From positions 1 through 37,430 of IMG/VR virus record IMGVR_UViG_3300033475_000094: a DNA stretch of 37,430 nucleotides; one strand, 5' to 3'. A program made the position numbers and the translations under genes. Positions 9,129 to 37,359 of this stretch are shown here, piece by piece; the stretch's first letter is position 1; each line of letters opens with the position of its first letter. The notes below the pieces were generated by a model. It was not told the DNA's origin. It did not search any database and was given only the letters and a program-made list of their open reading frames with translations. The DNA comes from a virus. Its lineage: Duplodnaviria; Caudoviricetes.

Positions 9129-9170
9129 AAAAAGCCGGTCGACTCCGGGGCTGACAGGTCGACCGGCTTT
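9129..9170 (-). terminator. intrinsic terminator of sRNA-B
   Basis: AAAGCCGGUCGAC..GUCGACCGGCUUUUU. Confidence 0.8.
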
Positions 9171-9238
9171 GTGCCACTACCAACAAAGGAGCCACCCCAC
9201 CGTTGGGGAGCCCGTTACCTACGTGGCGCTCGGTAACT
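9129..9238 (-). ncRNA. candidate trans-acting antisense sRNA (sRNA-B) with anti-leader/anti-SD seed
   Basis: Own promoter TTGACA-N12-CTGCTA (9241-9268), two 5' hairpins, unpaired CUCCUUUGUUGGUA, 13-bp terminator plus U-run; no plausible ORF. Confidence 0.7.
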
Positions 9239-9240
9239 AC

Positions 9241-9268
9241 ACAATAGCAGGTATACCATCCCTGTCAA
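9241..9268 (-). promoter_or_regulatory. early-type sigma70 promoter
   Basis: TTGACA-N12-CTGCTATTGT, same geometry as the early array. Confidence 0.75.
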
Positions 9269-9271
9269 GAT

Positions 9272-9382
9272 AAAAGCGGCTACAATCTCACAATGCAACC
9301 GCCTTTACCTCGAGAATATGTGTTTGAACGGTTCTGCACCATCTGGGCCTCGCGGCCTGATGGTTACTGCTTACATTCAGCC
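9272..9382 (-). ncRNA. candidate structured ncRNA (ncRNA-A)
   Basis: GTGCTACAAT -10 box, rod-like hairpin capped by a GGCC-GCGA-GGCC GNRA tetraloop, terminator GCGGUUGCA/UGUAGCCGC-UUUU. Confidence 0.45.
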
Positions 9383-9431
9383 TCTCCATTGTAGCACTGC
9401 AAACCGTTTGCAGCATCGATATCGTAGCAAA

Positions 9432-9857
9432 TTACCTAACACGTTTCAAGAGAATTGGTAAATTTATTACGTTGGGATTGTTCACAAGTTGAAAAACAAT
9501 GTTGACAGCAATGCCGTTATTATTAGGCGAGTCGAGCACAGTGAGATTAATGATGGTAATGCGTGGCTCAAACTGTCGAGCGCTAAGTGTTATTGCATTG
9601 CGAATGTCTTCTATGAGAAACGGTGTGTCGAGCTCAAACATAGATTGCACTACATTAGTGCCAAAGAAAGGCTGGAAAAAACGACCAAAAACTGCTGTAT
9701 AAACGAGATTCTTGAAAGCTTGTCGTACAGCATCTTCATTCTTCAATACGACGAGCTGATTTGTAATTGGATGCTTGACCAAATTGTTCGAGAAGTCAGA
9801 ATAGGTTTCTATCTTCTTCTGCGTTTGTGTTATAAGATCAGCGCGACTAATTGACAT
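9432..9857 (-). CDS. baseplate wedge subunit gp25
   Basis: YSDF..HPIT..KNEDAVRQAFKNLV..RFFQPFFG..FEPRI: gp25 family. Confidence 0.92.
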   Translation of the reverse strand: MSISRADLITQTQKKIETYSDFSNNLVKHPITNQLVVLKNEDAVRQAFKNLVYTAVFGRFFQPFFGTNVVQSMFELDTPFLIEDIRNAITLSARQFEPRITIINLTVLDSPNNNGIAVNIVFQLVNNPNVINLPILLKRVR

Positions 9858-9879
9858 TTAATGCCCTTTCCCTTAATCT
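9851..9879 (+). promoter_or_regulatory. sigma70 promoter for the + strand three-gene unit
   Basis: TTGACA-N17-TAATCT overlapping the gp25 start codon. Confidence 0.55.
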
Positions 9880-9881
9880 GG

Positions 9882-9888
9882 TATTTAG
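9882..9888 (-). promoter_or_regulatory. T4-type late promoter (CTAAATA) for gp25
   Basis: CTGCTAAATACC about 25 nt upstream of the gp25 ATG. Confidence 0.65.
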
Positions 9889-9896
9889 CAGCGACC

Positions 9897-10133
9897 ATGG
9901 GATATCTTATGCCTGATAGCGTTAAAGCCAATGAAGTTGAGTTGAGCACTATCCGTGAAGAATTGCGAGGATATGGAATTGCTCATGAGCGAGTTGATTC
10001 ATTAATGGTTGAGCTAATACAGGTAGGCCAGCAAGTTATTTGCGCCTCACTTGGTGAAGTAGCCGGCGCTACATCAATTGCCCCTGAGACGTTGAAGGTA
10101 CTGATCGCCACTCTAGTTGCCCATGGAAAATGA
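9897..10133 (+). CDS. hypothetical protein
   Basis: Start moved downstream of the + promoter (9897 or 9909); ATGA-coupled to the next ORF. Confidence 0.6.
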   Translation: MGYLMPDSVKANEVELSTIREELRGYGIAHERVDSLMVELIQVGQQVICASLGEVAGATSIAPETLKVLIATLVAHGK

Positions 10134-10342
10134 GAAAATACGATCCTGACAAGTTGTTGAGTCTGATGAATTTTCTCTGCTGGTACCAGCAGGACCAACC
10201 AGGAGCCTATTGGGGCGGCGTTCCCATAGAAACTGCTATGCAAGGGCTACAACATGTGCTAGGCCTTGATGATGAGGCCTTTGAGTTGCTTAAGCAAGTA
10301 TCTTTGGGCACATACACTCCAGGGGAGCCAAAAAATGACTAA
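10130..10342 (+). CDS. hypothetical protein
   Basis: Overlap-coupled to both neighbours. Confidence 0.65.
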   Translation: MRKYDPDKLLSLMNFLCWYQQDQPGAYWGGVPIETAMQGLQHVLGLDDEAFELLKQVSLGTYTPGEPKND

Positions 10343-10532
10343 GTGGGATATTTACGGCGTTGATGGTAAGATCGGCGTCTTAGAGGCTGTTACGTACGAG
10401 CTTGCCAGAGATGCGGCAAGAAAACAGTATCCCGAACTCGGTAATCGTGTTCGGGTCTACAGAGCCAAGGTGGAGCAAGAGAAGACATCTACTCGTGCTG
10501 AACGTCTTGCTCGCCGAATCCCTCGCCGCTAG
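10335..10532 (+). CDS. hypothetical protein (MTKWDIYG...)
   Basis: GGGGAG RBS before ATG 10335; ends just before the convergent hairpin. Confidence 0.65.
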   Translation: MTKWDIYGVDGKIGVLEAVTYELARDAARKQYPELGNRVRVYRAKVEQEKTSTRAERLARRIPRR

Positions 10533-10540
10533 CCGTCTAG

Positions 10541-10569
10541 AAAAAGGGCTGGGAATGACCCAGCCCTTC
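10541..10569. terminator. hairpin between convergent units
   Basis: AAGGGCTGGG-AATGA-CCCAGCCCTT; U-run on the minus strand. Confidence 0.7.
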
Positions 10570-10575
10570 GTTGCG

Positions 10576-11199
10576 TTAGCTTGCTGCCTTTTCCGTCTCT
10601 TGCTCTGCGAGCTTGAGAATAACAGCGCTCTTAGCAGTTTCCTGTGCCTCAGTCACCAGCTCAACGGCCATCGCCGCATTGCTAGCTTGTAGCTCACGAA
10701 GAGCAGTGAGCCGATTGGCGACGAACTGGTCGATCTCCGTCATTGTTGATGAGATTGCATCCTCGGTTGCCTTGGCGCTGGTCACCATAACCTTCGTGAG
10801 GCTAACCATCCGAGTACGGACCTCAATGGCATAATTGGCGAAGGTGTCCCGTTGAATTTGCAGATTTTCGTTCTGGGTCTTGAGGAACGAAATCTGGTCG
10901 TTGAGCCGGAGGATTTCGGCGGCATGATGTTTGCGGTCTTCCTCGATCTGCGCAATGCCCGCCGCATTGACGTCACGAAGCTCCAACACTTCCTGCTCGA
11001 GTGCCGTCTGATGCAATACAGCGGCTTCCATCATGTTAGCTGGCACCGGCGGTGGAGGCGGGGCATGTTCCAGCTCGGGAGCCACCCGATGCAAGCGAGC
11101 ATCTTCAAGTGGCATCGTCGAAGGTGGCGGCACCGGCATGGCCGCCACGGTAGGCAAACGATTGTCTTTCATGGCTTCTCTCCTGGTAGTTGTTGCCAT
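10576..11199 (-). CDS. coiled-coil hypothetical protein with Pro-rich N-terminus
   Basis: 207 aa, heptad-like Ala/Glu/Gln-rich C-terminal part; GGGGAG RBS. Confidence 0.75.
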   Translation of the reverse strand: MATTTRREAMKDNRLPTVAAMPVPPPSTMPLEDARLHRVAPELEHAPPPPPVPANMMEAAVLHQTALEQEVLELRDVNAAGIAQIEEDRKHHAAEILRLNDQISFLKTQNENLQIQRDTFANYAIEVRTRMVSLTKVMVTSAKATEDAISSTMTEIDQFVANRLTALRELQASNAAMAVELVTEAQETAKSAVILKLAEQETEKAAS

Positions 11200-11462
11200 T
11201 AATCTCCCCTTCCTTTTGGAGTGGATGTTGGTACTTTCCGTTTGCGGGCAACCGGGGACTTCTGCTGCAAGCTGTACCAGCCAAGAGCATTCATCGCCTT
11301 GGTTAAATCCAACGGTGATGAGCCGTCCTTCGGTTGTTCGCCAAGCAGCAAGAAAACGGCGACGTTTTTCTTGTCCTTCTGCTTGAATGAGACACTTAAT
11401 CCGGGTTGCACATGAGTGAAGCTACCCATCGTGACTATATCGCCGTTAACAGGTCCTCGCAT
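11199..11462 (-). CDS. hypothetical protein
   Basis: TAATG-coupled to the next ORF; downstream of promoter 11495-11522. Confidence 0.6.
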   Translation of the reverse strand: MRGPVNGDIVTMGSFTHVQPGLSVSFKQKDKKNVAVFLLLGEQPKDGSSPLDLTKAMNALGWYSLQQKSPVARKRKVPTSTPKGRGD

Positions 11463-11477
11463 TGGTCACAATCCCAT

Positions 11478-11522
11478 GAAAAAGCTCTAGCTGCATACTA
11501 ACAGCTAGAGCTACTTTGTCAA
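11478..11522 (-). promoter_or_regulatory. terminator hairpin with embedded sigma70 promoter
   Basis: AGCTCTAGCTG/CAGCTAGAGCT stem plus UUUU; TTGACA-N16-TAGTAT with the -10 in the loop. Confidence 0.6.
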
Positions 11523-11541
11523 GCCTACGAGTGACGTGATA

Positions 11542-11772
11542 TTATTTCGTTCTCTTAGGCAATATAACCAATTCATGGTAAGCCATGTGGCAGACGATGG
11601 CAAGCCAGTTCTCTTCTTCATTCGTAATTGGATCGCCGAGCTTACGTGCCATCGTCTCCAGGCGAGCGATAATCTTCTGTTCCATTTGATGACACTGTAT
11701 GACTTCTTCATCGGTCATTGCAAGCGCTTCCGAAGCCATTTCGTCCTGCAAGGCAGTAATCTTAGAGCCCAT
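11542..11772 (-). CDS. hypothetical early protein
   Basis: Own promoter 11799-11826 and CAACAAAGGAG leader. Confidence 0.75.
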   Translation of the reverse strand: MGSKITALQDEMASEALAMTDEEVIQCHQMEQKIIARLETMARKLGDPITNEEENWLAIVCHMAYHELVILPKRTK

Positions 11773-11849
11773 TTATCAACTCCTTTGTTGCGTTCAAGAC
11801 AATAGCGGGCCCGACCAAAAAGTCAAGTCCGCTATGGCACAAATTCAAA

Positions 11850-12125
11850 TTAGTAGGTCTTGGTAGTACGGACTTCCGTGCTCTTGCCGTCAATCTTGAT
11901 TCGGATTTCAAGGTTTGGATCAATCAACTCCTTGCCGTCCTTTACAAGTGCAAGAATTGATTGATATACTACCTCACCATAGGCCTTTTTCAAGGTCTCG
12001 GTACGCAAATCTTCAATATCAATGTTGTGTTCAATCTCAGTGCTGGGTAAAGGATTGAACACCTTAATGGTTGCGCCTTCTGGCGTGGTTTGCCACACCG
12101 TGGCCTTTATAGTATGATAGCTCAT
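11850..12125 (-). CDS. hypothetical protein
   Basis: Preceded by TACCAACAACGGAG leader. Confidence 0.65.
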   Translation of the reverse strand: MSYHTIKATVWQTTPEGATIKVFNPLPSTEIEHNIDIEDLRTETLKKAYGEVVYQSILALVKDGKELIDPNLEIRIKIDGKSTEVRTTKTY

Positions 12126-12181
12126 TTAAATTGGCCTTACTCCGTTGTTGGTAACTCAAACTAATTAGTTAAACGTTGATC

Positions 12182-12670
12182 TCACGGTTTCTTGGTGACC
12201 ACCGTAAGGGTACGCTGCAAGGGTGGCGGTGCTGCCTCCATACCCTTAGCAACCATCAAGACAAGATTGCCAAGGGAGCGGTATCCGGAATCGTTGCCCG
12301 CAAGATGCATTATAGTTTGAGCCGACTGTAAAGCCAACACATATTCTGCTGGATTGTCGGATTTTGGCAGGTCAATCATCACCGTAGTGACGTTAGGATC
12401 AACGTTCTTTTTATTATGGGAACGTTCAAGCCGGATTGCCTTAATGGCTTTGCCAACTAAGGTCTCGTGAATTTCCAAGGCGGCGGCGATCTCGGCGGGT
12501 TTTGCGCAGAGATGTTTCTCGCAATAGTCCCGCACTCGTTCAACCGTGTATGCTGATGGCTTGCCTTGGCCAAACCTGCGAGCTGAGTCCAGCATGTCCT
12601 GCGGAGGTTTGTTTTCGTTGATGTCTTTCATAACAGCCCTTACTTTGATTGGTGCCTTTAATATAAGCAC
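12182..12670 (-). CDS. putative HTH DNA-binding protein (start uncertain)
   Basis: KPAEIAAALEIHETLVGKAIKAIR fits a helix-turn-helix pattern. Confidence 0.55.
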   Translation of the reverse strand: MLILKAPIKVRAVMKDINENKPPQDMLDSARRFGQGKPSAYTVERVRDYCEKHLCAKPAEIAAALEIHETLVGKAIKAIRLERSHNKKNVDPNVTTVMIDLPKSDNPAEYVLALQSAQTIMHLAGNDSGYRSLGNLVLMVAKGMEAAPPPLQRTLTVVTKKP

Positions 12671-12673
12671 CGA

Positions 12674-12853
12674 TTACTTGGTCGTCAATTGACCATTGGT
12701 AACATAGGTTTCATAATTGAGTGCCTCCACGATGTAGTCAGCGTTAGTTTCTTTGTAGATCAGCCCGCAAAGATATTCCCGATTATCTTCGCCAATTGTC
12801 CAAAGTTCAAACCCACCAAATACTCGACGATAAAACCATTCACCAGGTTTCAT
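12674..12853 (-). CDS. hypothetical 59-aa protein (not in track)
   Basis: MKPGEWFYRRVFGGFELWTIG...; ATGA overlap with upstream stop. Confidence 0.6.
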   Translation of the reverse strand: MKPGEWFYRRVFGGFELWTIGEDNREYLCGLIYKETNADYIVEALNYETYVTNGQLTTK

Positions 12854-13234: not shown

Positions 13235-13249
13235 CTGGAATACCTCCGT

Positions 13250-14594: not shown

Positions 14595-14671
14595 ACACCC
14601 GGCTCCTTAGTTGGTAGCCCAGTATAGCACATCAGGCCAAGCTGTCAACCCTATGAGTTGACGCTATTTCA

Positions 14672-21151: not shown

Positions 21152-21240
21152 TGTGTCGCTCCTTAGTTGGTATCCGCAGAATAGCACGGCCCGAACTAGA
21201 GTCAAACACTTTTTCAAACGGAAGGTGTTGCACCGCAATA

Positions 21241-21417
21241 TTATTTGATGCGGCGCTTGTACTTGGTTAGGCCCGACGAGAGGATGACGTAGTAGAATTC
21301 AGCGTCTGCGGGGGCATGCTGGGTTTCGTAGAGATAGGCGTCCCGAAACTGCTGGCCCTGCTTCAGGCGCTCCTCGTACTCCTCCCTCGTTAGGGTCTTA
21401 GGCTTCCGTTTTGCCAT
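21241..21417 (-). CDS. hypothetical protein (MAKRKPKTLT...)
   Basis: Start at ATG 21417 within the tail of the upstream ORF. Confidence 0.55.
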   Translation of the reverse strand: MAKRKPKTLTREEYEERLKQGQQFRDAYLYETQHAPADAEFYYVILSSGLTKYKRRIK

Positions 21418-21526
21418 GCTTGCCCTTCCGGCTGTAGACCTTCTTGGACTTGACAACCCGCGGACGGTATTTGGGCGTCCGCAAGTCCGCTGCTACGGTG
21501 TTCCGTCGTTTGCGCTTCTTGGCCAT
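21398..21526 (-). CDS. ArfA-like alternative ribosome-rescue factor homolog, 42 aa (not in track)
   Basis: MAKKRKRRNTVAADLRTPKYRPRVVKSKKVYSRKGKHGKTEA aligns by eye with E. coli ArfA N..A.L..P.FR.RV.K.KK..Y.RKGKHG; GAGGA RBS. Confidence 0.65.
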   Translation of the reverse strand: MAKKRKRRNTVAADLRTPKYRPRVVKSKKVYSRKGKHGKTEA

Positions 21527-21536
21527 AATCCAGTCC

Positions 21537-21869
21537 TCAGTCGTTGATGACCAAAGCGGTCAGTTTCTCCAAATGGGCGGGTAGCTTGTGCCACTTGTTG
21601 GCGACGCTGCGGTCCGCAATGTGGGTAGCCTTGTACCGCCAACCCATAACCTCGTCGTCGTGGGTGTCAACCCCATCCTGCACAAAAAGCACTGAATCTC
21701 CAGTGAGATGGGACACGAGGATGAAGCCAACGTCGCAGGCGTCATCGTAAACCCTACCGTCAAAGCAGCGGCCGCCAGTTCCACCAATGTCCGAAGCCTC
21801 AGCCGTGAAGCAGTTATTGTGGAAGCTGAAATCCCGGGTGCTTTTGTAGGTGCTGCAAATGATAGTCAT
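21537..21869 (-). CDS. hypothetical early protein
   Basis: Promoter 21954-21981; AGGA..CCCAAATG start context. Confidence 0.75.
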   Translation of the reverse strand: MTIICSTYKSTRDFSFHNNCFTAEASDIGGTGGRCFDGRVYDDACDVGFILVSHLTGDSVLFVQDGVDTHDDEVMGWRYKATHIADRSVANKWHKLPAHLEKLTALVIND

Positions 21870-22016
21870 TTGGGCGGTTCCTGTTTTGGGTAGTAAGGGG
21901 AAGCCTTTTGGACTTCCCCCTCCGGGCCCTGTAACGTCCCAGCTGTCACGTGTACCGTAGCATGGGCTGACGCAGAGTCAAACACTTTTTCAAATGAAGA
22001 TGTTGCAATGCACAAA

Positions 22017-22280
22017 GAAAAAGCCCTGGACTAGAGCCAGAGCTGTGCTTAAACCACCAAAAGAGCCATTATGAAACCTTCGAACCCAAAGTCAACTTTG
22101 GATCTTCTAACTCCGTAAAGTGAACCCCTACGGGGCCTTCACTTCGTTACGGCCATTCTTCGAATAACCGAAGTGATTTATATGATCAAGGGTTTTACGG
22201 CTTAGGTAAAACCCATTAGCACTCATGTTTAAAACATGATCACGTGGAATTTATTTCCACAACTAACGATCGGCACTTGA
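22017..22280 (-). ncRNA. hairpin-dense non-coding element; candidate sRNA (or origin-like region)
   Basis: At least 6 short inverted repeats, 3' segment GGCUCUUUUGGUGGU..GCACA similar to the sRNA-B seed, terminator at 22017-22044. Confidence 0.4.
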
Positions 22281-22302
22281 AAAGGGGGCTTAGGCCCCCT
22301 TT
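22280..22302. terminator. bidirectional intrinsic terminator
   Basis: AAAAGGGGGC-TTAG-GCCCCCTTT. Confidence 0.75.
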
Positions 22303-22310
22303 AACACATT

Positions 22311-22427
22311 TTACAATTTGGACAAGTAGCACGCAAAAGCGAACAGCGGACGGAACAGTATATTGGGAAGCTTATGCAGTGGCGAACAGCACAGCTTGAG
22401 ACCCACTTTTGAAAGCATATTGCGCAT
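22311..22427 (-). CDS. 38-aa early peptide (not in track)
   Basis: Promoter 22453-22480, leader TACCAACACAGGAG, MRNMLSKVGLKLCCSPLHKLPNILFRPLFAFACYLSKL, then terminator. Confidence 0.65.
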   Translation of the reverse strand: MRNMLSKVGLKLCCSPLHKLPNILFRPLFAFACYLSKL

Positions 22428-22476
22428 AGCGTGCTCCTGTGTTGGTAGAAGCACGCTAGCACAGTTTGGAGGGTTG

Positions 22477-22854
22477 TCAAGCCTCCAGCGCCTCCTTTAT
22501 GCGGCGCTCCAGGGCGTAGTCAATATCCCTGAGGTAGCAGTAGAAGCCCACGTCCAGCTCGCCGCAGTGGCGGGCGTTATAGGCGTCCATGTCCCAACGG
22601 ATCGCATCAGCCCAGCTCTTCGCCCCAATCTCCATGTAGCGGACCAGGTCCTGCTCCCAGGTCTTCTGAGCCTGGAGCTTGCTGCGGGACTCGGACGCAA
22701 TGCTTTCGTCCAGCTCTTCGCAGAACCCATCCCAGGTGGACTGGAGTTCGTCGTCGGACATGGCAGCATAGTCCAAACGCACCCGGTAACCACGGGCGTC
22801 CTTGGAGAGGTCCGAGATGATCTGGAGCATGCCGTTACGTTCTGCGGGGGTCAT
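22477..22854 (-). CDS. hypothetical early protein (MTPAERNG...)
   Basis: Cassette promoter/leader 22861-22906. Confidence 0.8.
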   Translation of the reverse strand: MTPAERNGMLQIISDLSKDARGYRVRLDYAAMSDDELQSTWDGFCEELDESIASESRSKLQAQKTWEQDLVRYMEIGAKSWADAIRWDMDAYNARHCGELDVGFYCYLRDIDYALERRIKEALEA

Positions 22855-22943
22855 TTCGTTCTCCGTTGTTGGTACGCTACCATAGCACACTTTGGAACAG
22901 AGTCAAACGTTATTTCAAACTATTTTCAAAAGAGTTGGGAGGC

Positions 22944-23303
22944 CTAAGCGGCCTCCCGTTGCTCCTTATTAGCTTTCTTCGCTTTCGCAGCCTCGTCGAG
23001 CTGCTTCCAATACTTGACGATGCGGGAGTAGCCAGTCCGTTCGGAACGCTTTACCCACTTCTGTACGACCCAATCGGGCAAGCACCCATCCTTCAGGTAC
23101 TTCTTGGCACCCAGACAGCCTCCAAAGCCATCCGCCCCCGTAAATCCAACGCCGTTATCAACGTTGGTGGTGTTGGCGTCCTTTTCAGCTGCTGTCTGCC
23201 TCTTAAAGAGCACGACAAGGGCCCTTCCAACCGTATGCATCTGGATGTCGCCACCCTGGTCAATGAGGGCCTGGAGGAAATCACGGGTTACGAGGTGGGT
23301 CAT
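22944..23303 (-). CDS. hypothetical early protein
   Basis: Perfect leader TACCAACAAAGGAG; RQT..E...T...NGVGF motif. Confidence 0.8.
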   Translation of the reverse strand: MTHLVTRDFLQALIDQGGDIQMHTVGRALVVLFKRQTAAEKDANTTNVDNGVGFTGADGFGGCLGAKKYLKDGCLPDWVVQKWVKRSERTGYSRIVKYWKQLDEAAKAKKANKEQREAA

Positions 23304-23393
23304 TGGGATAACTCCTTTGTTGGTATGCCCACGATAGCACAGTTTGGAGTAATGTCAAACAGTTTTTCAAGTTTTTTTTGTGTTTTTTATAGT

Positions 23394-23428
23394 CGTCAGG
23401 GGCCTCCGGGTCCTAAGGTTTGGACCGT
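23394..23428 (-). ncRNA. promoter-proximal conserved RNA motif, copy 1
   Basis: ACGGUCC-AAACCUUA-GGACCCGGAGGCCCCUGACG directly after promoter 23440-23467; no ORF. Confidence 0.55.
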
Positions 23429-23511
23429 CACCCATGCTAACCATAGCATGGGATGATATAATGTCAAGCCACAAAAGGAAACGGGGGCTCCAAGGCCCCC
23501 TTGCTCCTCCC

Positions 23512-23718
23512 TTACATGCTCCAGTAGGTTTCGGAGCTCGGATCGCAGCACAGCGGCGTGTCGACCGGGATGCGGACGAGATTGCCGGACATGAGGTTGG
23601 TGACCACCTTGGTCTGGACGCCCTGCTCGTACTGTTCCTCCATGCTGCGGGCGAAGTCGACGCTGCGGCGAGCGTGGCGGACGAGGCGAGCATGCTTAAC
23701 TTGGCGGGACTTGGACAT
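23512..23718 (-). CDS. hypothetical early protein (MSKSRQVK...CCDPSSETYWSM)
   Basis: Promoter 23769-23796; GGAG..CCCAAATG; followed by terminator 23474-23502. Confidence 0.75.
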   Translation of the reverse strand: MSKSRQVKHARLVRHARRSVDFARSMEEQYEQGVQTKVVTNLMSGNLVRIPVDTPLCCDPSSETYWSM

Positions 23719-23828
23719 TTGGGTTGCTCCGGTAAAGCACCGGGATGGTGCTCTTTGTTGGTATTCGGACCCTAGCACGGATTGATATAGAGTCAACCCA
23801 TAAAGGCCTTGCACCGCAGCAAACGGGT

Positions 23829-24137
23829 TTACTTGCGGCCGCCCTTTTCCCACTTTTGCACCGCAGCAACCAACTCCTCATGGAAATAGTCACCCCGCAT
23901 CGTGCGCTTGATGTCAATACCTCCAAGGAGGCCAAATACCAGAACCCGGGTGGCGGGATTGTAGAAGCCCGGAATATCACTTGACTTCTTGAGCTTTTCG
24001 TGGTTGGTGACTTGGTCACCGTCCAGGGTTGCGATGGCGGTCTCTGTGATGCCATCCTCCGTCCAGCTGAAGTGCACAGTGTAGAAGTGCAGGCCGCCGG
24101 AGCCGTTGCGGTGAGAGACGATTTGGTGAATTTTCAT
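23829..24137 (-). CDS. hypothetical protein
   Basis: AGGAG RBS. Confidence 0.7.
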   Translation of the reverse strand: MKIHQIVSHRNGSGGLHFYTVHFSWTEDGITETAIATLDGDQVTNHEKLKKSSDIPGFYNPATRVLVFGLLGGIDIKRTMRGDYFHEELVAAVQKWEKGGRK

Positions 24138-24146
24138 GTCAATCTC

Positions 24147-24215
24147 CTAGTGCATGAGGCAGGCGACGATGAAGAAACCGACGAACGCAATAACGGCAGT
24201 GTGCCAGGTGGGCAT
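24147..24215 (-). CDS. 22-aa hydrophobic peptide (not in track)
   Basis: GAGGAG RBS; MPTWHTAVIAFVGFFIVACLMH fills the intergenic gap. Confidence 0.45.
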   Translation of the reverse strand: MPTWHTAVIAFVGFFIVACLMH

Positions 24216-24220
24216 TGAAC

Positions 24221-24478
24221 TTACTCCTCTTCGATGGGTTTGTCAAGTGTCATGGGGCGTATTTCAACCCTGAGAGGAGCATCCTCCCAGATGTGCATCA
24301 AGTCACCTGTCATCATGGTGTCAAGGGCAAACTCGATCACCGTGTCCTCGTCGAAGTCGAAATAGGGTGCGGAACGTACGATGGCGGTACCTTCCTCCAG
24401 TGCCTTTTCCAGGCTGGAGTAGATGCCATACTCCATCTCGCCTTCGTAGCTCACGCAAAGCAGGTATTGGGTAATCAT
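24221..24478 (-). CDS. acidic hypothetical early protein
   Basis: Cassette promoter 24504-24531, CCAACAAGGAG leader. Confidence 0.75.
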   Translation of the reverse strand: MITQYLLCVSYEGEMEYGIYSSLEKALEEGTAIVRSAPYFDFDEDTVIEFALDTMMTGDLMHIWEDAPLRVEIRPMTLDKPIEEE

Positions 24479-24542
24479 CTTCGTTCTCCTTGTTGGCGAC
24501 CACATGCTAGCACGAAGCGATGCAGAGTCAACAGCATATTTG

Positions 24543-24575
24543 AAAAAAGTGGCCAGGGCTTTTACACCCTGGCCC
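24543..24575 (-). terminator. intrinsic terminator
   Basis: GGCCAGGG/CCCTGGCC followed by AC and U6. Confidence 0.7.
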
Positions 24576-24585
24576 AGTTGCCCAA

Positions 24586-24858
24586 TTACTCCTCGTCGTC
24601 CTCCAATTCTTCCTCGTCCTCGTCCTCCACTTGGGAACGCAGGGCCTCGATCGTATCCTCCATATTGGTGTTGTGCCCCACGTACATGTGGTCATCGTCC
24701 AGGGACATCACCAGGTGCCCGTACCAGTATGCACGAGCACGCTCGTATTCGCTTGTACCACGAACGATCTCCATGGCCTCCTGGGCCAGGTTCTTGATCT
24801 TGTTCTTGATCTCTTCCAGACGTTCAACGTCCGAAGCCTTTGGGATATTGTTGGGCAT
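24586..24858 (-). CDS. acidic-tailed hypothetical early protein
   Basis: Cassette promoter 24888-24915; leader AACAAACAAAGGAA. Confidence 0.8.
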   Translation of the reverse strand: MPNNIPKASDVERLEEIKNKIKNLAQEAMEIVRGTSEYERARAYWYGHLVMSLDDDHMYVGHNTNMEDTIEALRSQVEDEDEEELEDDEE

Positions 24859-24928
24859 TGGGTGTTCCTTTGTTTGTTAGTGCTGACACTGTAGCACAAA
24901 ACGGCACAGTGTCAAACACTTTTTCAAA

Positions 24929-25165
24929 CTATCTTGCGGTGATGATCACAACGCTTGCGCACTGCGAGGCGTCGAAGTCCTTGTCGTCCTCGTCCACCAC
25001 CTTACACATATTGTGGTAGGATGAGTGCTTGACATAGCCCTCGTCGACGTTCTCCGCAATGGGAGCAACTTGGGTATGCCAGTGATCCCCATAGTTGTAT
25101 GCGAAGTGAACCTCCGCCTCGGGATCCATCTGCTGGAGTTCGGAAATGAGCTCTTCAACGGTCAT
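24929..25165 (-). CDS. hypothetical early protein (MTVEELISELQQMDPEAEV...)
   Basis: Cassette promoter 25199-25226; common phage MTV.EL...L...DP N-terminus. Confidence 0.8.
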   Translation of the reverse strand: MTVEELISELQQMDPEAEVHFAYNYGDHWHTQVAPIAENVDEGYVKHSSYHNMCKVVDEDDKDFDASQCASVVIITAR

Positions 25166-25257
25166 TTGGGCTGTTCCTTTTGTTTGCTTAGTGTCGCCAC
25201 TGTAGCACGGGACGACACTAAGTCAAATAGTTTTTCAAATATTGGTGCTGCGGTGCA

Positions 25258-25521
25258 TTATATCTTCATGCCCACGCGAGCAACGACAACACGGCAGAAG
25301 CGCTTGGGATGGACCCCACCCACATAGCGTGCAGTGACGATAACGCACCCAAGCTTCTTCAAATCGTATTCGTCGAGGTGGGACACATTACGCCAACCAG
25401 TCTCTCGCAACTGCTTTGGAACTTCACTGACTGGCATGCCCCAGAACTTGCCGCCGGCCTCGGTTTGGTAACGGCCAGGCCAGTTGAGCACTGCCTTGAT
25501 AATTGCCTGCTTGGTAAGCAT
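25258..25521 (-). CDS. hypothetical early protein
   Basis: Cassette promoter 25549-25576. Confidence 0.75.
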   Translation of the reverse strand: MLTKQAIIKAVLNWPGRYQTEAGGKFWGMPVSEVPKQLRETGWRNVSHLDEYDLKKLGCVIVTARYVGGVHPKRFCRVVVARVGMKI

Positions 25522-25594
25522 TGGATCTCTCCTTGTTGGTGTGCCCCTACGATAGCACACCAAACCCAATTGTCAAACGTTATTTCAAATTATT

Positions 25595-25960
25595 TCAGGG
25601 CTTCCACTTGTAGTTGGGGTCGTACTCCCTGTTGATCCGCTGGATGCCCTCGAAGGCGAGTTCGCTGTGGGTTTTTGTTTTGTCAAGCTTAATCTTGCCC
25701 TTCTTGGTAGCCTTGCGGATGTCGCGGACATGGTGTCCCCATGTCTTGCCGCCGTCGAAGGAGAACTGGGTATAGCCAATGCTCTTCAGCTTGCGAACGA
25801 GCATGCCATACGTGCTCTCATGGAACTTGAAGCCTCGTTCCCATGACCCGCTCTGCCCGCTTGTCGTGTTCTTGCCGACAGTGGCCTCAAAGTTACGAAC
25901 CTTCACTTTCTTGCCCTGATTGGCAAGGTAGAATTCCTTAGTATGTTGAAACTTGGGCAT
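25595..25960 (-). CDS. basic hypothetical early protein
   Basis: Cassette promoter 25987-26014. Confidence 0.8.
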   Translation of the reverse strand: MPKFQHTKEFYLANQGKKVKVRNFEATVGKNTTSGQSGSWERGFKFHESTYGMLVRKLKSIGYTQFSFDGGKTWGHHVRDIRKATKKGKIKLDKTKTHSELAFEGIQRINREYDPNYKWKP

Positions 25961-26031
25961 CTTCGTTCTCCGTTGTTGGTATGCAGACACTAGCACACAT
26001 CGACACAGAGTCAAACGTTATTTCAAACAAA

Positions 26032-26265
26032 TTATTTCTTCAGATGGACCTCGTTGGGGTCGACTTCTCGGCCGGCCTGTGTTACATACCAGCCGTCGTT
26101 CCCGTCGGTCACCTTGCAGCCCACATAGCCATCGTTCTCCAGGGTACGCAGGGCACGTCGCACCCTGGACCACGTTGAGTTAATCTCCATTGCTATGTCA
26201 GCTGAGCTGGTGGGCCAACGACCAGGAGCTCTGAGGTAGATGAGTACAGCACGACCAATGTTCAT
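26032..26265 (-). CDS. small winged-helix DNA-binding protein
   Basis: TSSADIAMEINSTWSRVRRALRTLENDGYV + beta-wing ending WYVTQAG; AAGGAGG RBS. Confidence 0.7.
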   Translation of the reverse strand: MNIGRAVLIYLRAPGRWPTSSADIAMEINSTWSRVRRALRTLENDGYVGCKVTDGNDGWYVTQAGREVDPNEVHLKK

Positions 26266-26267
26266 TG

Positions 26268-26555
26268 TCAACCCTCCTTCAGGATGCCAAACAGGGCCCA
26301 CTTGCCAATGCGGGGCCACTCAGCCCAGCTGTGCTTGCACTTGCAGACACGAAGATCGGTGTACTTGTCAAGCTGAATATACTCATGTGCAGCGGCCCAG
26401 TCATAATCGAAATACTTGACTTCCCGATCCGGGTTAACCGCATACACCGTACCCAGCATGTTCTCCCACAACAGGGGTTTATGTTTCTGGGTATAGGACT
26501 TTTTGGCTCTGGAAGCACCTGCGAACACGTCGCTGGGTTGGGGCTTCTTGGGCAT
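26268..26555 (-). CDS. hypothetical early protein
   Basis: Cassette promoter 26587-26614. Confidence 0.75.
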   Translation of the reverse strand: MPKKPQPSDVFAGASRAKKSYTQKHKPLLWENMLGTVYAVNPDREVKYFDYDWAAAHEYIQLDKYTDLRVCKCKHSWAEWPRIGKWALFGILKEG

Positions 26556-26660
26556 TGGGTAACTCCTATTGTTTGTTGGTACGCTATCAATAGCACACTA
26601 AGAAACAATGTCAACCCGAAGAATGGAGCGGGGAGCCTTTTTAGGGGCTCCCCTTTTCCG

Positions 26661-26942
26661 TTACTCCGCCGAGGGCTCGAGCGCATTGCGCTCCTTCATG
26701 TTGCTGAGCACTTCCCAGGTGTCGAAGCACTGCTTCTGCATGGGCTTGCTGGCGGCGAGCGTCTTGTACGCCGCAACCAGGGCGCCGGCCTTGATGTGCT
26801 CGGCGATCTTGGCCGCAGCCTTCGCCGCAGTGCCGAAGCGCTTGGCAGCGTTCTTGTCCTCGGACTTCTTGGCGAGGCGGGCATTGCGACGCTCGACACG
26901 GCCAGCGAGTTCGATGTGACGGGTGGGATTGAAGATCTGCAT
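26661..26942 (-). CDS. Ala/Lys-rich hypothetical early protein
   Basis: Cassette promoter 26996-27023; leader CCAACCAACCAACAGAAGGAG. Confidence 0.75.
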   Translation of the reverse strand: MQIFNPTRHIELAGRVERRNARLAKKSEDKNAAKRFGTAAKAAAKIAEHIKAGALVAAYKTLAASKPMQKQCFDTWEVLSNMKERNALEPSAE

Positions 26943-27042
26943 GGTGTAACTCCTTCTGTTGGTTGGTTGGATTTACGTCTCTGCTTACATTTCCGACTTT
27001 AGCACCTATTTGAGCAATGTCAAATAGTATTTCAAACTTTTT

Positions 27043-27318
27043 TCAGTCCTGGTCAGTACGCCCGACCCACTTGAGACTGCACACACCTGGAAAGAAGGAT
27101 TGGGTATGTCCGTCCATCTTAACGTAAATGCGGCCAGTGCTGCCACCGTGCCTCGGGAGCTCGATGCTCTCCAGCTCGCAAACCTCATTGCGGAACGTCT
27201 GGAGGATATCACCGGGCTTGGCTTCAATCCCTGTCGTCTCGTGTACAAGCTTGGGCACGAGGTAAGGCTGGGATTGGGTGTTCTGCGGTCCCATTGGATG
27301 GATCACTTTGCGCTTCAT
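27043..27318 (-). CDS. hypothetical early protein
   Basis: Cassette promoter 27408-27435; GGAG..CCCAAATG. Confidence 0.75.
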   Translation of the reverse strand: MKRKVIHPMGPQNTQSQPYLVPKLVHETTGIEAKPGDILQTFRNEVCELESIELPRHGGSTGRIYVKMDGHTQSFFPGVCSLKWVGRTDQD

Positions 27319-27450
27319 TTGGGCTCTCCGTTGCGGGGCTTAGCTAATACCATAAGTCCAAACTGGACTAGCACTAACTAAGCCCCTGTGTTTGCTTTAA
27401 CTCGTCCACTGTAGCACAGTTTGGAACAATGTCAAATAGTATTTCAAATA

Positions 27451-27705
27451 TTATGTCACAACGTGGGACGTTATTTCCCACGTCCAGCTGCCGTCATCGT
27501 TGACGTAGCTAACCCAAGCGCCGTCGCCGCCTGTGTAATGTGTTACAGCCTCATCAAACGGAGCAGCGTCATCGTCGCCCTCTGCCTCGTCGCTATAGCA
27601 GCGCTTCATATCCTCCAGGGCAAGCTCCTGGGTAGCGAAGACGTCAATAACGCCTGCACAATCCTCGTCTAGAGTCTTGCACACTAGCACCCAAACCTTC
27701 GTCAT
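27451..27705 (-). CDS. acidic hypothetical early protein (MTKVWVL...)
   Basis: Promoter TTGCGT-N17-CATAAT 27731-27759; AACAACAGGAG leader. Confidence 0.75.
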   Translation of the reverse strand: MTKVWVLVCKTLDEDCAGVIDVFATQELALEDMKRCYSDEAEGDDDAAPFDEAVTHYTGGDGAWVSYVNDDGSWTWEITSHVVT

Positions 27706-27845
27706 TGCTGCTCTCCTGTTGTTATGCTTCATTATGGCACGTATTTGAAAAATACGCAAGCCTTTTTTCAAATTATTTTTCAAACTTTTTTGTTGACATT
27801 ACTTCGTAACGTGCTATGCTGTTGGGACAACAAAGGAGAAGCCCA

Positions 27846-28055
27846 ATGTCCACATTTAGCGATGAGTTTGCGGAGAAGCTGTTCGAGGTATTCGACACAG
27901 CTAAGGAAGAAAAGGTTGCAGAGCTATACAAGCTCCTAGCGGACTATCGCAGCACCTATCCACGAAGCTATGCCAAGTTGAAGACAAAGCCCTTTAGCGG
28001 GGCTGTGATTATTGCTGTAGAGGAAGCCCACAATTATCTTAATGAGGTGGGTTGA
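27846..28055 (+). CDS. hypothetical early protein (MSTFSDEF...)
   Basis: + strand cassette promoter 27793-27820, ACAACAAAGGAG leader. Confidence 0.8.
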   Translation: MSTFSDEFAEKLFEVFDTAKEEKVAELYKLLADYRSTYPRSYAKLKTKPFSGAVIIAVEEAHNYLNEVG

Positions 28056-28114
28056 CATTGTATCGTTTCGTGCTACCCTAGCTGTACGTTGCATATAGCA
28101 GCGGGCTAGGGTGC

Positions 28115-28149
28115 ACGGCCCAAACCTTAGGGCCCGGAGCGGCCTGATG
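28115..28149 (+). ncRNA. promoter-proximal conserved RNA motif, copy 2
   Basis: ACGGCCC-AAACCUUA-GGGCCCGGAGCGGCCUGAUG after promoter 28052-28079. Confidence 0.5.
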
Positions 28150-28257
28150 GGCTGATTTCATCAACGATGGGCAAATGATCTTTCCCCTGTGGGCTGTCAA
28201 CCCTGGCTCAGGAGATTGGAGTATACGGATGGATTATGGACTATCTAGCGTCTCAAG

Positions 28258-28479
28258 TCAAGCCTCCTCGGGGCCCCAATCGCCCCATTTTTCAAACGTG
28301 CCATGTGCGTAAGTAACGAAACCCCGCACCTCAGTCCCATCAGGAGCAACCACAACGGAAGCTGTATGCTTACCCTTGCGATACGTTATGGTTTTGGACC
28401 CTGCGGGTGCATGCAGTGCCCCGGGTATAACGAGGCCCCACTGCTTAAACCCGCTTGCTTCCAAATGCTTTATGTTCAT
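28258..28479 (-). CDS. hypothetical early protein (MNIKHLE...)
   Basis: Cassette promoter 28504-28531; AACAACAAAAGGAG leader. Confidence 0.75.
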   Translation of the reverse strand: MNIKHLEASGFKQWGLVIPGALHAPAGSKTITYRKGKHTASVVVAPDGTEVRGFVTYAHGTFEKWGDWGPEEA

Positions 28480-28588
28480 AACAAAGCTCCTTTTGTTGTT
28501 CCCATAGTAGCACAAAACTATTTCAAGTCAAATGTTTTTTCAAACTATTTGCACTTGACATTATCTCATCCTGTGCTACTCTATGCGT

Positions 28589-28627
28589 ACGGTCCCCACA
28601 GCAATGCAGACCCGGAGGCCCCTGACG
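28589..28627 (+). ncRNA. promoter-proximal conserved RNA motif, copy 3
   Basis: ACGGUC..GACCCGGAGGCCCCUGACG (19 nt identical to copy 1) after promoter 28555-28582. Confidence 0.55.
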
Positions 28628-28810
28628 GCTGTATTCCATGATACGGGGAACCCAGATACCCTAGAGTAACATAAGTCCAATCTCCAGTCAACCCCACGAC
28701 AAAAAAGAAGATTGTGCAGTGCAAGGCCTAATATTTGAAAAAATGTTTGACGTTATTTCGTTTTGTGCTATACTCTACGGACAATAAGGGAACTAAAGGA
28801 GTTACCCAAA

Positions 28811-33630: not shown

Positions 33631-33668
33631 GCGATTTCTCCATTGCTAGCGACAAACGTGTTATAAGG

Positions 33669-35072: not shown

Positions 35073-35306
35073 TCATTCCTCGTTAAATTTGCTGCCGATC
35101 AACTGATATGCAGCCATCATAGCCTGGGCGGCCTTTTCGCAGGCCGCCTTCACGTCAGGAAACTCTGCACAGCAACGAGAATCGACCACATGACGATCCC
35201 AGGTATCCTGAAGTACATGGGCCGTATGCAGCGCTTCGTGAGTATATCCTCCGTTATAATCGTCCGTGGTTTCGGTGGACTTAATTGACGTTTCTTCGGT
35301 GGGCAT
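35073..35306 (-). CDS. hypothetical protein
   Basis: Follows terminator-embedded promoter 35343-35371. Confidence 0.65.
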   Translation of the reverse strand: MPTEETSIKSTETTDDYNGGYTHEALHTAHVLQDTWDRHVVDSRCCAEFPDVKAACEKAAQAMMAAYQLIGSKFNEE

Positions 35307-35326
35307 GAACTGATTTCACCTCATAG

Positions 35327-35371
35327 AAAAGCGGTGTGTCTTATGGTACAAACACACCGCTCAGCAGTCAA
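35327..35371 (-). promoter_or_regulatory. terminator hairpin with embedded sigma70 promoter
   Basis: AGCGGTGTGT/ACACACCGCT plus UUUU; TTGACT-N17-TACCAT with the -10 in the loop. Confidence 0.6.
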
Positions 35372-35935
35372 TTAGTCTTCTTCGTCTTCCTTAGGAGTAT
35401 AGAACGACGGCCATTGCGCATCACCAGTTTCAAGATATGAGGCAAGTGCTTGGATCGCCTGTTCCTTTGTTATATCAGCACCATCAAACACCACACAATC
35501 GTAACGAGGATCATCCCATGGATAGAAAAGAAGATGTAGCTGATTCATAGAGTCGCTGGTTGCCTCTTCATCATAATACTCGCAATCTTCAAACAGATGC
35601 TTTTCATCCATAATATATTCAGCAGTACCACCGATGCAACAAACGGAGCCGCAATTTTCAGTATATGATCGGTAATTGCTATTTTCATCATAATAACCTC
35701 TATGATAAGTGTGATATCCCAGACTTTTTGCGGTTTGCTTTGCGACAATATCAGTCTTGAATGCAGTACTTTGCCACGTGCTCATGTTGAAAAAAATCTG
35801 GGCACCAAGCTTGTCATCAGGCACCATATAGGTATCTTCAATATGCACAATGGTTCCTGCCTTAAGGGCAGCAAGGGTCGCATGGAGACCCTTGTATTGT
35901 TTGTCGTTTAATCCAAGTTGTTCTTTAGTCAGCAT
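35372..35935 (-). CDS. Cys-motif paralog family member
   Basis: LGL..Q..LH.TLAALKAG, FNM..W, CGSVCCIGGTAE, LFYPW, AIQAL..YLETGD..WP. Confidence 0.85.
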   Translation of the reverse strand: MLTKEQLGLNDKQYKGLHATLAALKAGTIVHIEDTYMVPDDKLGAQIFFNMSTWQSTAFKTDIVAKQTAKSLGYHTYHRGYYDENSNYRSYTENCGSVCCIGGTAEYIMDEKHLFEDCEYYDEEATSDSMNQLHLLFYPWDDPRYDCVVFDGADITKEQAIQALASYLETGDAQWPSFYTPKEDEED

Positions 35936-36440
35936 TACGATAATCCTCAATCACTTGCGGCCAATTAGCATCGCCGGTTTCAAGATAGTTTGTGAGTGCC
36001 TGAATGGCATTAGGCAGTGTAAGTTCTACATCAACAGGACAGACGTCAAATCGTTGATCATTCCATGGATAAAAGAGATAATAAAGACGACGGTTTTTTG
36101 CGGCTACTTCACTCCGACCATAAGTGTTCGTAATATTCGGCTCGAATAGATTAGTGGTATTGGTGATATATTCGGCAGTACCACCGATGCAACAAACGGA
36201 GCCGCAATGTTTGTTGTCAGTATATGCATGCGTCTCTTCTCCATATTCCTCTTCTTTAGTGGAGAAGATGTCATCATTCCACGCCAACATGTTGAACATG
36301 AGAAGATTTGTCTCGTCGGTTTCAATAGGATCTTCCCATTCCTCAAGATGCTTAATTTTTCCTGCTTTCAGGGCAGCGAGTGTGCTGTGGAGAGCGCCGT
36401 ATTGCTGGTCACTCAGACCAAGTTCAGTTGCAGTTTTCAT
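35925..36440 (-). CDS. Cys-motif paralog family member
   Basis: Same motif series; start 36440 (or TTG 36455). Confidence 0.85.
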   Translation of the reverse strand: MKTATELGLSDQQYGALHSTLAALKAGKIKHLEEWEDPIETDETNLLMFNMLAWNDDIFSTKEEEYGEETHAYTDNKHCGSVCCIGGTAEYITNTTNLFEPNITNTYGRSEVAAKNRRLYYLFYPWNDQRFDVCPVDVELTLPNAIQALTNYLETGDANWPQVIEDYRNAD

Positions 36441-36445
36441 TTTAT

Positions 36446-36925
36446 TTAAATCCAATCAGATTTGCCAGCATATATGCTCGGCCATTGTGAATCGCCGGTT
36501 TCAAGATAATTTGTGAGTGCCTGAATGGCTTGCTCAAGTGTAATGCCATTACCATCAATGGTGTGATGATTGTCATCATATAACGGATGTTCCCATGGAA
36601 AAAAGAGATATCTTAAATTTTTGATTTTATCATTATCACCATGATAAAACCGAATATTTTCAAAGAGGGTTCTGCCAGCAATAAACTCAGCAGTACCGCC
36701 AATACAGCAGACCGAGCCACAATGATTATCGTAGTCTTCTCCACCGTAGATCGAATCGTTCCAGGAATCCATATTGAAGAACAATCTCTTAGGATCATCA
36801 GGCAGAATATCTGTATTAGCATTCTCATCTAGATGAACGATTGTGCCAGCCTTTAGTGCTGCAAGGGTGCTATGTAAAGCAGAGAATTGTTCGGCAGATA
36901 GGCCGAGCTCGTCAGCAGTTTTCAA
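36446..36925 (-). CDS. Cys-motif paralog family member
   Basis: Same motif series; GGAG before TTG start. Confidence 0.85.
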   Translation of the reverse strand: MKTADELGLSAEQFSALHSTLAALKAGTIVHLDENANTDILPDDPKRLFFNMDSWNDSIYGGEDYDNHCGSVCCIGGTAEFIAGRTLFENIRFYHGDNDKIKNLRYLFFPWEHPLYDDNHHTIDGNGITLEQAIQALTNYLETGDSQWPSIYAGKSDWI

Positions 36926-36970
36926 AACATTAACTCCAAAATATCTAAATTCAATATGGGTATTAGAACA

Positions 36971-36977
36971 TATTTAG
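36971..36977 (-). promoter_or_regulatory. possible late promoter (CTAAATA) for the paralog array
   Basis: Same core as upstream of gp6/gp25, just after a terminator. Confidence 0.45.
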
Positions 36978-36994
36978 TCAGGAATTTCAATAAT

Positions 36995-37136
36995 AAAAAA
37001 AGGGCCGCTCCCAAAGAAGCGGCCCAAGGCTAGGGAGGAAACGCCCAAGGAGGGTAACAGAAGATTACAAGAACAGACGTCCACAACAAACAAAGGACTA
37101 TGGGAACTTGTAACCAACCAGTACGTCCCAACGGAC
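36995..37136 (-). ncRNA. candidate trans-acting sRNA (sRNA-C) with anti-leader loop and several anti-SD motifs
   Basis: Promoter TTGACG-N17-TATATT (37143-37171), terminator GGGCCGCUUC/GGAGCGGCCC-U7, loop UCCUUUGUUUGUU, plus CCCUCCUU, UUCCUCCC and GUUCCC. Confidence 0.7.
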
Positions 37137-37167
37137 AATCGCAATATAGACGATTGGTGTTTGGGCG

Positions 37168-37359
37168 TCAATGCATATAAATGGCACAACCGAAGATAAT
37201 TCCCATTGCGATGATTGGACCCCAGGCCGCTAGTCTATACACATTCATTCGCATGTGATCCTCCTTTTTGTCATAGGAAACCCGCCACAGTCTGTCGGGA
37301 TCGAATCCATCGGATTCTCTGTGGCGGGTAGTTGCTATAAACCGGGCGATCCACAGCAA
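37168..37359 (-). CDS. small membrane protein (true start possibly at ATG 37254 after AAGGAGG)
   Basis: Hydrophobic C-terminal helix; strong RBS internal to the tracked ORF. Confidence 0.45.
   Translation of the reverse strand: MLWIARFIATTRHRESDGFDPDRLWRVSYDKKEDHMRMNVYRLAAWGPIIAMGIIFGCAIYMH

Follow-up and report, generated by a model that had tools for sequence, protein, structure and literature searches.

The question raised by this locus is whether a short non-coding unit on the minus strand of a phage genome fragment encodes an antisense small RNA (sRNA) directed against a leader shared by many early genes. The fragment, IMG/VR record IMGVR_UViG_3300033475_000094, originates from an uncultured T4-like phage; all of its 37,430 nucleotides (nt) were analysed and are referred to as the window. 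In the initial annotation, two stand-alone units, and possibly a third, were described as sRNAs carrying the reverse complement of the leader. The analysis supports an anti-leader sRNA for one of them, termed unit 1, based on anatomy, match statistics and reciprocal matching in one related phage, but not for three. As judged from sequence, it is on balance probable, though by no means certain, that unit 1 acts as a multi-target sRNA against ribosome-binding sites, which would dampen early translation as an RNA counterpart of T4 RegB.

The features of unit 1 are as follows.

9125..9235, minus strand: unit 1, candidate anti-leader sRNA of ~110 nt, with a stem-loop domain on the 5' side and a long terminator hairpin; the ends were placed by means of the promoter and the U-run
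9241..9268, minus strand: unit 1 promoter, TTGACA, 16-nt spacer, extended -10, TATTGT (10/12 match)
9178..9199, minus strand: unit 1 seed, with a 14-nt exact leader mirror at 9178-9191 that extends to a 22-bp duplex
9127..9170, minus strand: terminator-like hairpin with 16 pairs and a U-run, predicted by folding and not listed by a simple terminator scan

The description of unit 1 as a stand-alone element with an inverted leader was borne out. A minus-strand promoter (9268-9241), the 14-nt exact mirror and a hairpin with a U-run form an independent promoter-to-terminator non-coding unit, which is distant from its predicted targets. The folding z is -2.5, and a stable RNA of ~110 nt is a likely product, as far as can be told from sequence features. 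The opposite possibility, a relic sense leader transcribed from the plus strand only, finds no basis in the sequence, as neither a promoter before the inverted leader nor an open reading frame (ORF) of at least 40 amino acids (aa) until position 9318 was detected on the plus strand. Unit 1 matched no Rfam family, the C4 model included (gathering score or E up to 5), and no entry in a BLAST search against 50,697 phage records.

The leader itself is a 14-mer that contains the Shine-Dalgarno (SD) sequence. Eight matches with at most two mismatches were found in the window compared to 0.19 expected, and 0 of 100 shuffles reached eight. Seven of them are on the minus (coding) strand, while the eighth, at 9178-9191 on the plus strand, is located inside the minus-strand unit 1. 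All six leader coordinates given in the initial annotation were confirmed, each directly 3' of a TTGAC-N16-TANNNT promoter, and a seventh leader was added (predicted pairing with unit 1 in kcal/mol).

23312..23325, minus strand: leader, exact shared form, best predicted unit 1 target, -16 to -17 after opening costs
14603..14616, minus strand: leader variant, predicted unit 1 target, -13.7
21159..21172, minus strand: leader variant, predicted unit 1 target, -10.0; cassette-swap joint in a sister strain
22434..22447, minus strand: leader variant, predicted unit 1 target, -11.2
22861..22874, minus strand: leader variant, pairing with unit 1 -7.3
25968..25981, minus strand: leader variant, pairing with unit 1 -8.7
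12140..12153, minus strand: seventh leader variant, absent from the initial annotation and without a strict promoter upstream

A strict promoter scan (TTGAC-N17/18-TANNNT) yielded 36 sites in the window, 20 of which have an SD and a start codon within 45 nt and are hereafter called the 20 leaders. The statement that most early cassettes start with one leader turned out to be too broad: 6 of these 20 promoter-proximal leaders differ from the 14-mer at no more than one position, and 11 of the 20 have 8 nt or more in common with unit 1.

Complementarity of unit 1 over the SD of several mRNAs exceeds chance. With the leader of gene 22944-23303 (the 23325 leader), the seed can form an unbroken duplex of 22 bp, including three G:U pairs, which begins at the transcript start and reaches as far as the start codon. 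The 14-nt exact mirror was reached by 1 of 2000 dinucleotide shuffles, and none of 2000 equalled the number of leaders matched at 8 nt or more (11/20). When corrected for accessibility, 10 of the 20 leaders pair with unit 1 at -8 kcal/mol or better. The mean over the leaders is -7.4 kcal/mol compared to -4.9 kcal/mol for shuffles, 1 of 100 of which reached -7.4. Other promoter-terminator units of the window (9415, 34257 and 37363) pair with 0 of the 20 leaders at -8 kcal/mol. In a ranking of 929 predicted sites on both window strands, the best site was the 23325 leader.

A second line of evidence comes from a related phage and from the two genes that flank unit 1.

7249..9078, minus strand: baseplate wedge gp6-like gene, directly downstream of unit 1
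9432..9857, minus strand: baseplate wedge gp25 gene, upstream of unit 1

In most relatives gp25 and gp6 are adjacent without a gap. Among 232 gp6 loci examined, 218 hold both genes and 13 have a gap of more than 60 nt; a promoter in the gap was present only in the window phage and in the records L002 and L005 among the 218 loci. Both records represent one lineage (gp6 73-79% identical, 7 kb available), and it was the only other lineage obtained in the gp6 scans of viral contigs, genomes and metagenomes (at 30 of 64 parts). The end of the gap in L005 shows the same order as the window, with promoters, a hairpin with GUUUCCGCUCAGUUGG, a long terminator and TATAAATA, followed by gp6. Among 89 sites predicted for the L005 unit within L005, the best two coincide with leaders of early genes of this phage. 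Against its own starts, the L005 unit has a 10-nt exact match and matches 2 of 11; these values were reached by 11 and 43 of 2000 shuffles, respectively, and jointly by none. It has no exact match to the 61 window starts. Conversely, unit 1 matches the window starts with 14 nt and at 10 of 61 (0/2000 shuffles), and 0 of 11 L005 starts. On the co-variation of leader and seed in relatives, proposed as a check in the initial annotation, the outcome is reciprocal exact matching in one other lineage, that of L005. Since their alignment is not above chance, the two units are, at sequence level, regarded as positional equivalents and not as proven homologues. Because unit 1 mirrors the shared leader and the unit at the same spot in the relative mirrors leaders of its own, we conclude that unit 1 probably makes a small RNA, which would silence the genes with this leader jointly.

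Two further observations were made in L005. Just before the anti-leader unit, L005:5637-5835 (plus strand) contains a promoter with a normal-looking leader, a two-codon ORF and a terminator, a possible decoy leader. A further predicted pairing site of the L005 unit (-11 kcal/mol) is at L005:5158-5180 (plus strand), across the start codon of a 172-aa gene that shares the insert with the unit. Other searches added no further relatives. A 329-aa early protein used as query had none, pattern searches for leader and seed gave one unrelated match and otherwise, beyond L005/L002, unrelated contigs only, and a covariance model built from two sequences, whose consensus structure was poor, recovered only its training sequences in 43 sources. 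The closest cultured phages by gp6 are Sinorhizobium phage phiM12 and Caulobacter phage Cr30, with just 36-37% identity.

In the mechanism we propose, unit 1 would be transcribed by host sigma70 RNA polymerase as soon as infection starts. The RNA would enter the unstructured A/C-rich leader at two points, a bulge of UUU and the 3' end of the seed, which is open, and would then zip across the SD into the C-rich spacer. In roughly half of the early mRNAs that directly follow a promoter, the 5' leader and the SD are covered by the predicted pairing, which would block translation as the RNA builds up. Accumulation of a stable RNA against short-lived mRNAs would delay the shut-down, constituting an incoherent feed-forward loop and not a late-promoter switch. 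The late-acting timer of the initial annotation is not supported, as the unit 1 promoter is of the same sigma70 type as the promoters of its predicted targets. It does not have the upstream box found at 12 array promoters (see below), which could permit regulation apart from the targets. A T4-late-like motif (CTAAATA) at 9106-9112 precedes the gp6-like gene. This motif is not enriched across the window (9 vs 8.7), and late read-through into unit 1 is therefore not argued.

Several results weigh against a leader-silencing RNA. Ten of the 20 leaders pair weakly with unit 1. Below the top of the ranking the picture is less favourable, as ranks 2-6 fall on the opposite strand and only 5 of 14 minus (coding)-strand sites in the top 30 cover a leader. 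The initial description of the seeds as predicted to be unpaired was not confirmed: the mean probability of being unpaired, P(unpaired), is 0.75 for the loop of unit 2, 0.47 for unit 1, whose seed is about half paired in the folding prediction, and 0.20-0.39 for unit 3. The unit 1 seed is the 3' strand of a bulged stem, and its SD-complementary bases are in the stem. The promoter type of unit 1 gives no late timing. In the comparison with L005, alignment of the two units was no better than chance (reached by 316 of 1000 shuffles), and when G:U pairs and bulges are allowed, unit 1 pairs with 2 of 5 L005 leaders (-9.3 and -12.6 kcal/mol; three of the five were hand-picked). The covariation of seed and leader rests on one other lineage and 7 kb. 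Finally, scans of a complete 480-kb phage (84 leaders), of two partial arrays and of Cr30 and phiM12 detected no non-coding unit in which a promoter drives an inverted leader; these scans required strict promoters or exact 9-10-mers, so that looser cases would escape. Since phages with a shared leader were found without such a unit, the anti-leader design is not required.

The origin of the shared leader has to be considered separately. Promoter-early stem-loop (PeSL) cassettes of T4-type phages consist of a sigma70-like promoter with an AT-rich upstream part, followed by an SD and the start codon of a small ORFan, according to the accessible parts of their descriptions (PMC2839356, PMC4122927). 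The window contains a comparable region.

21159..28800, no strand assigned: core array of PeSL-like promoter-leader-ORFan cassettes, 12 promoters with a common upstream box

All these elements recur ahead of ORFans in the array, and genes are gained, lost or replaced at the repeats between close relatives. A sister strain is known from contigs of one study (three runs), in which genes are swapped at the leader repeats, with joints at 21159, 21205, 23305, 23472, 23818, 24154, 24250 and 24537. Some cassettes of the window are inverted (27793, 28747), and hairpins were seen by eye before some cassettes. A promoter followed by a CAAC..GGAG pattern occurs in an estimated 700 viral stretches (at least 123 listed from 11 of 64 parts), and unrelated phages carry arrays of 31, 33 and 84 such leaders. 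Shared early leaders of their own are present in phiM12 and Cr30 as well (12 and ~7 copies, respectively), with no inverted stand-alone copy found. Because of the PeSL-type anatomy, the swaps at repeats and the similar arrays in unrelated phages, the shared leader needs no sRNA as explanation; taken alone, it is an ordinary PeSL-type promoter/SD cassette of phage hyperplastic regions. The view that the leader was standardised for control by sRNAs is thus not upheld, given known cassette modules and similar leaders in phages in which no anti-leader unit was found. We infer that the likeness of the leaders comes from cassettes being copied and shuffled via the promoter-leader repeat, a likeness which the unit 1 RNA would exploit.

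The upstream box, TTTGAAAWA, precedes 12 array promoters, and 13 pattern matches were found in the window compared to 0 expected. It abuts the -35 element at these promoters (21201-28751) and may be an UP element or a regulator site. SD-to-start spacers ending in CCCA or CCAA are enriched (7 of 19 window leaders vs 9 of 178 in seven other phage sets). They occur at promoters 23358, 24915, 25226, 25576, 27793 and 28747 and genes 21537 and 27043, and can pair with the G run of unit 1 or the core of the SuhB-family RNA described below. The early-type promoters 23467 (minus), 28052 (plus), 28555 (plus) and 21981 (minus) drive ORF-less stretches, extending ~60-120 nt downstream of each, that share GG[A/G]CCCGGAG, in three cases followed by CCTGA and in two preceded by an identical small hairpin. 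These stretches had no Rfam match and are possibly a repeated small RNA family.

The mobility of the cassettes is the starting point for the alternative that survives best, which we nevertheless regard as unlikely: unit 1 may be an inverted cassette leader caught between gp25 and gp6, whose hairpin merely stops early read-through into the baseplate genes and whose RNA is inert. Cassettes recombine at repeats in the sister strain and in the available description of T4-type phages (PMC2839356), inverted cassettes exist in the window, the mirror takes in a spacer-like C-rich stretch and the seed is partly buried. This reading is difficult to reconcile with an own antisense-facing promoter located 110 nt from the terminator and with the absence of a plus-strand promoter or ORF. 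In addition, a unit of like anatomy occupies this site in a second lineage, where the seed differs and corresponds to the leaders of that lineage, and two independent relics at one site are unlikely.

The second unit proposed in the initial annotation proved to be a real promoter/terminator unit with a 13-nt exact mirror of one leader variant, but it is chiefly a SuhB RNA of a host family (RF00519), which had been missed.

36992..37136, minus strand: unit 2, ~145 nt, unique 5' extension, SuhB/alpha-r8 domain and terminator, folding z -4.9
37143..37171, minus strand: unit 2 promoter, TTGACG-N17-TATATT
37002-37025, minus strand: unit 2 terminator
36988..37062, minus strand: SuhB/MmgR (alpha-r8) domain, Rfam RF00519, whole model matched (positions 1-77 of 77)
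37085..37097, minus strand: hairpin loop of unit 2, rich in U and G, which exactly mirrors 13 nt of the leader that follows promoter 24915

The 3' half of unit 2 scored 64.8 bits against RF00519 suhB/MmgR (gathering cut-off 41). It features a single-stranded UUUCCUCCCU (P(unpaired) 0.87) after a weak hairpin, followed by a Rho-independent terminator, in line with the family definition in the accessible part of PMC12559287. According to the same source, the family is spread across Alphaproteobacteria; the presence of this RNA, together with the gp6 kinship to phiM12 and Cr30, makes an alphaproteobacterial host likely. Unit 2 is not beside the FGase gene, the usual position of the family, and its neighbours are phage ORFans; paralogues away from this gene are known (PMC12559287, in part). 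In the available parts of two sources, alpha-r8/SuhB/MmgR/SisA-D members are reported to target, together with Hfq, the SD regions of mRNAs of the host (bioRxiv 10.64898/2025.12.09.693200; PMC12559287). Unit 2 shares the weak hairpin, the single-stranded UUUCCUCCCU and the terminator with them, and differs by being located in a T4-like phage and by a ~75-nt 5' extension with an anti-leader loop.

The loop is predicted to be open. For the 13-nt mirror and the matching of 7 of the 20 leaders at 8 nt or more by the 5' extension, 9 and 64 of 2000 shuffles, respectively, reached the same values. Among other viral SuhB copies, 3 of 117 match at least three window leaders with the upstream part, compared to seven leaders for unit 2. 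The 5' anti-leader loop is therefore suggestive, not firm. As a specific regulator of early leaders the SuhB core was rejected, since it showed no class preference (18 early vs 69 other starts, p = 0.87). Phage copies are common: the exact 17-nt core is present in an estimated ~170 viral stretches (at least 119 listed), while Cr30, phiM12 and three viral records all lacked RF00519 (0/5), and BLAST of unit 2 against the 50,697 phage records gave two short SuhB-core matches. The sister strain retains 36849-37430 with seven differences. We conclude that unit 2 is probably a captured host-family SuhB sRNA acting mainly on host mRNAs, to whose targets the 5' loop may add AACAAACAAAGGA-type leaders. 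Directly upstream of it, 37363-37268 (minus strand) forms a unit with promoter, perfect hairpin and terminator and no leader match.

The possible third unit (22017..22280, minus strand) was rejected as anti-leader RNA. Its best exact match of 8 nt, to 1 of the 20 leaders, is at chance level (reached by 1594 of 2000 shuffles). Its 5' end is not preceded by a promoter; a single good promoter-like site exists, inside the unit at the edge of the mostly paired seed. The unit is also replaced by 164 other bases in the sister-strain contigs (21815-22987 skipped). The stretch 22017-22300 is a run of about six short palindromes in AT-rich, strain-specific intergenic DNA.

The presence of unit 2 bears on whether unit 1 might likewise be a general anti-SD RNA against host mRNAs, serving translation shut-off and matching the leaders since CAACAAAGGAG-type leaders are strong and common ribosome-binding sites. 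Such leaders do occur in many unrelated phages, and the same phage carries a host-family anti-SD RNA. We consider this explanation improbable all the same, because the match exceeds the SD, beginning at the transcript start and running on into the spacer over 22 bp, and differs between the lineages in step with their own leaders. To the same low degree we credit, by analogy with c4 RNA in P1/P7 immunity, that the pairing could serve another purpose, namely to hold off early takeover genes in a stalled (pseudolysogenic) infection or to silence a superinfecting sister phage. An early-type promoter and a stable fold would suit a persisting RNA, and the sister strain swaps cassette genes while keeping unit 1 unchanged and the promoter-leader at a swap site. 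However, the phage is T4-like, and a general protein scan and Pfam recognised no lysogeny genes among the window proteins. Least probable is a protein that shuts early genes off at the TTTGAAAWA box, or a RegB/RegA-type factor at the GGAG leader, with the RNA as minor tuner or decoy: the surplus of box matches and the use of RegB cleavage at GGAG together with RegA in T4 (accessible part of PMC3014915) agree with it, but an antisense copy with its own promoter is left unexplained, a decoy would bear the sense sequence, and regA/regB, if present, lie outside the 37-kb fragment.

A wider scenario built on the leader-silencing RNA is tentative and, taken as a whole, rather doubtful. The phage lineage may have replaced the protein-based shut-off of T4 with RNA, keeping its shuffled early genes in a standard cassette and thereby subject to a single master antisense RNA, the seed of which would co-evolve with the leader, while the other leader class and host mRNAs would be covered by a second, hybrid RNA (host SuhB core plus phage anti-leader loop). 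The means by which lytic phages silence dozens of early genes that are unrelated and often toxic have been worked out in detail mainly in T4, which uses proteins. If true, recognition of the cassette by an RNA, whatever gene it carries, would account for the regulation of new genes once recombined into the array. Such RNAs would also be findable by sequence alone as an inverted leader within a promoter-terminator unit, and the mechanism would be simple and testable with reporters.

In the window, baseplate genes are located at 2.6-9.9 kb, followed by mostly small ORFs without family (85 proteins scanned, 27 in Pfam). Over 8800-14116 the sister-strain contigs are 99.7% identical to the window, and all 15 differences lie outside unit 1, although at such divergence little is said on selection. 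The public runs listed as containing the phage included no RNA data set, and the contigs compared were of DNA. Promoter-led structured non-coding stretches were observed at 9415-9270 (minus strand; between gp25 and unit 1, overlapping a 42-codon ORF) and at 34257-34178 (minus strand). A tRNA-Lys(UUU) gene is located at 33667-33740 (minus strand). Two similar tandem genes are found at 35925-36925 (minus strand); the sister strain is without 36363-36849, with 5 bases common at the joint.

Compared to known systems, the array shares with PeSL regions the repeated promoter/SD cassettes of a hyperplastic region and the gene swaps at repeats. Unlike in the accessible PeSL accounts, the window has an antisense unit and many promoters with a TTTGAAAWA box. 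Antisense RNA is not described for PeSL in the available parts of PMC2839356 and PMC4122927, and the terms 'antisense' and 'small RNA' occur 0 times in that of PMC2839356. Literature searches, including the available parts of the phage transcriptome papers PMC8244752 and PMC10914365, found no report of a phage sRNA that targets a leader common to early genes, with most subscription papers and supplements outside the search. The closest printed observation is from Cluster K mycobacteriophages, in which a conserved SD-containing 13-mer (SAS) precedes many non-structural genes and has a single opposite-orientation copy not tied to a gene, for which the authors allowed an RNA or protein binder (PMC3203893, in part). 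These are temperate siphoviruses of Actinobacteria, and in the accessible text the inverted copy has no assigned promoter-terminator unit or RNA, whereas here it is within a complete unit. In T4, the RegB endoribonuclease and the RegA repressor inactivate many early mRNAs at the translation-initiation region, freeing ribosomes, and no small trans-acting RNA from T4 has been functionally characterised according to the available part of the same review (PMC3014915). Unit 1 would likely do the same job, the T4 factors being proteins. The c4 antisense RNA of P1/P7 is phage-encoded and trans-acting and blocks a ribosome-binding region by short complementary stretches; unlike unit 1, it has one target operon (ant), a role in lysogeny/immunity and loop-displayed seeds (PMC12197685, accessible part). 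Taken together, unit 1 would resemble RegB/RegA in purpose and c4 in chemistry, and is a member of neither.

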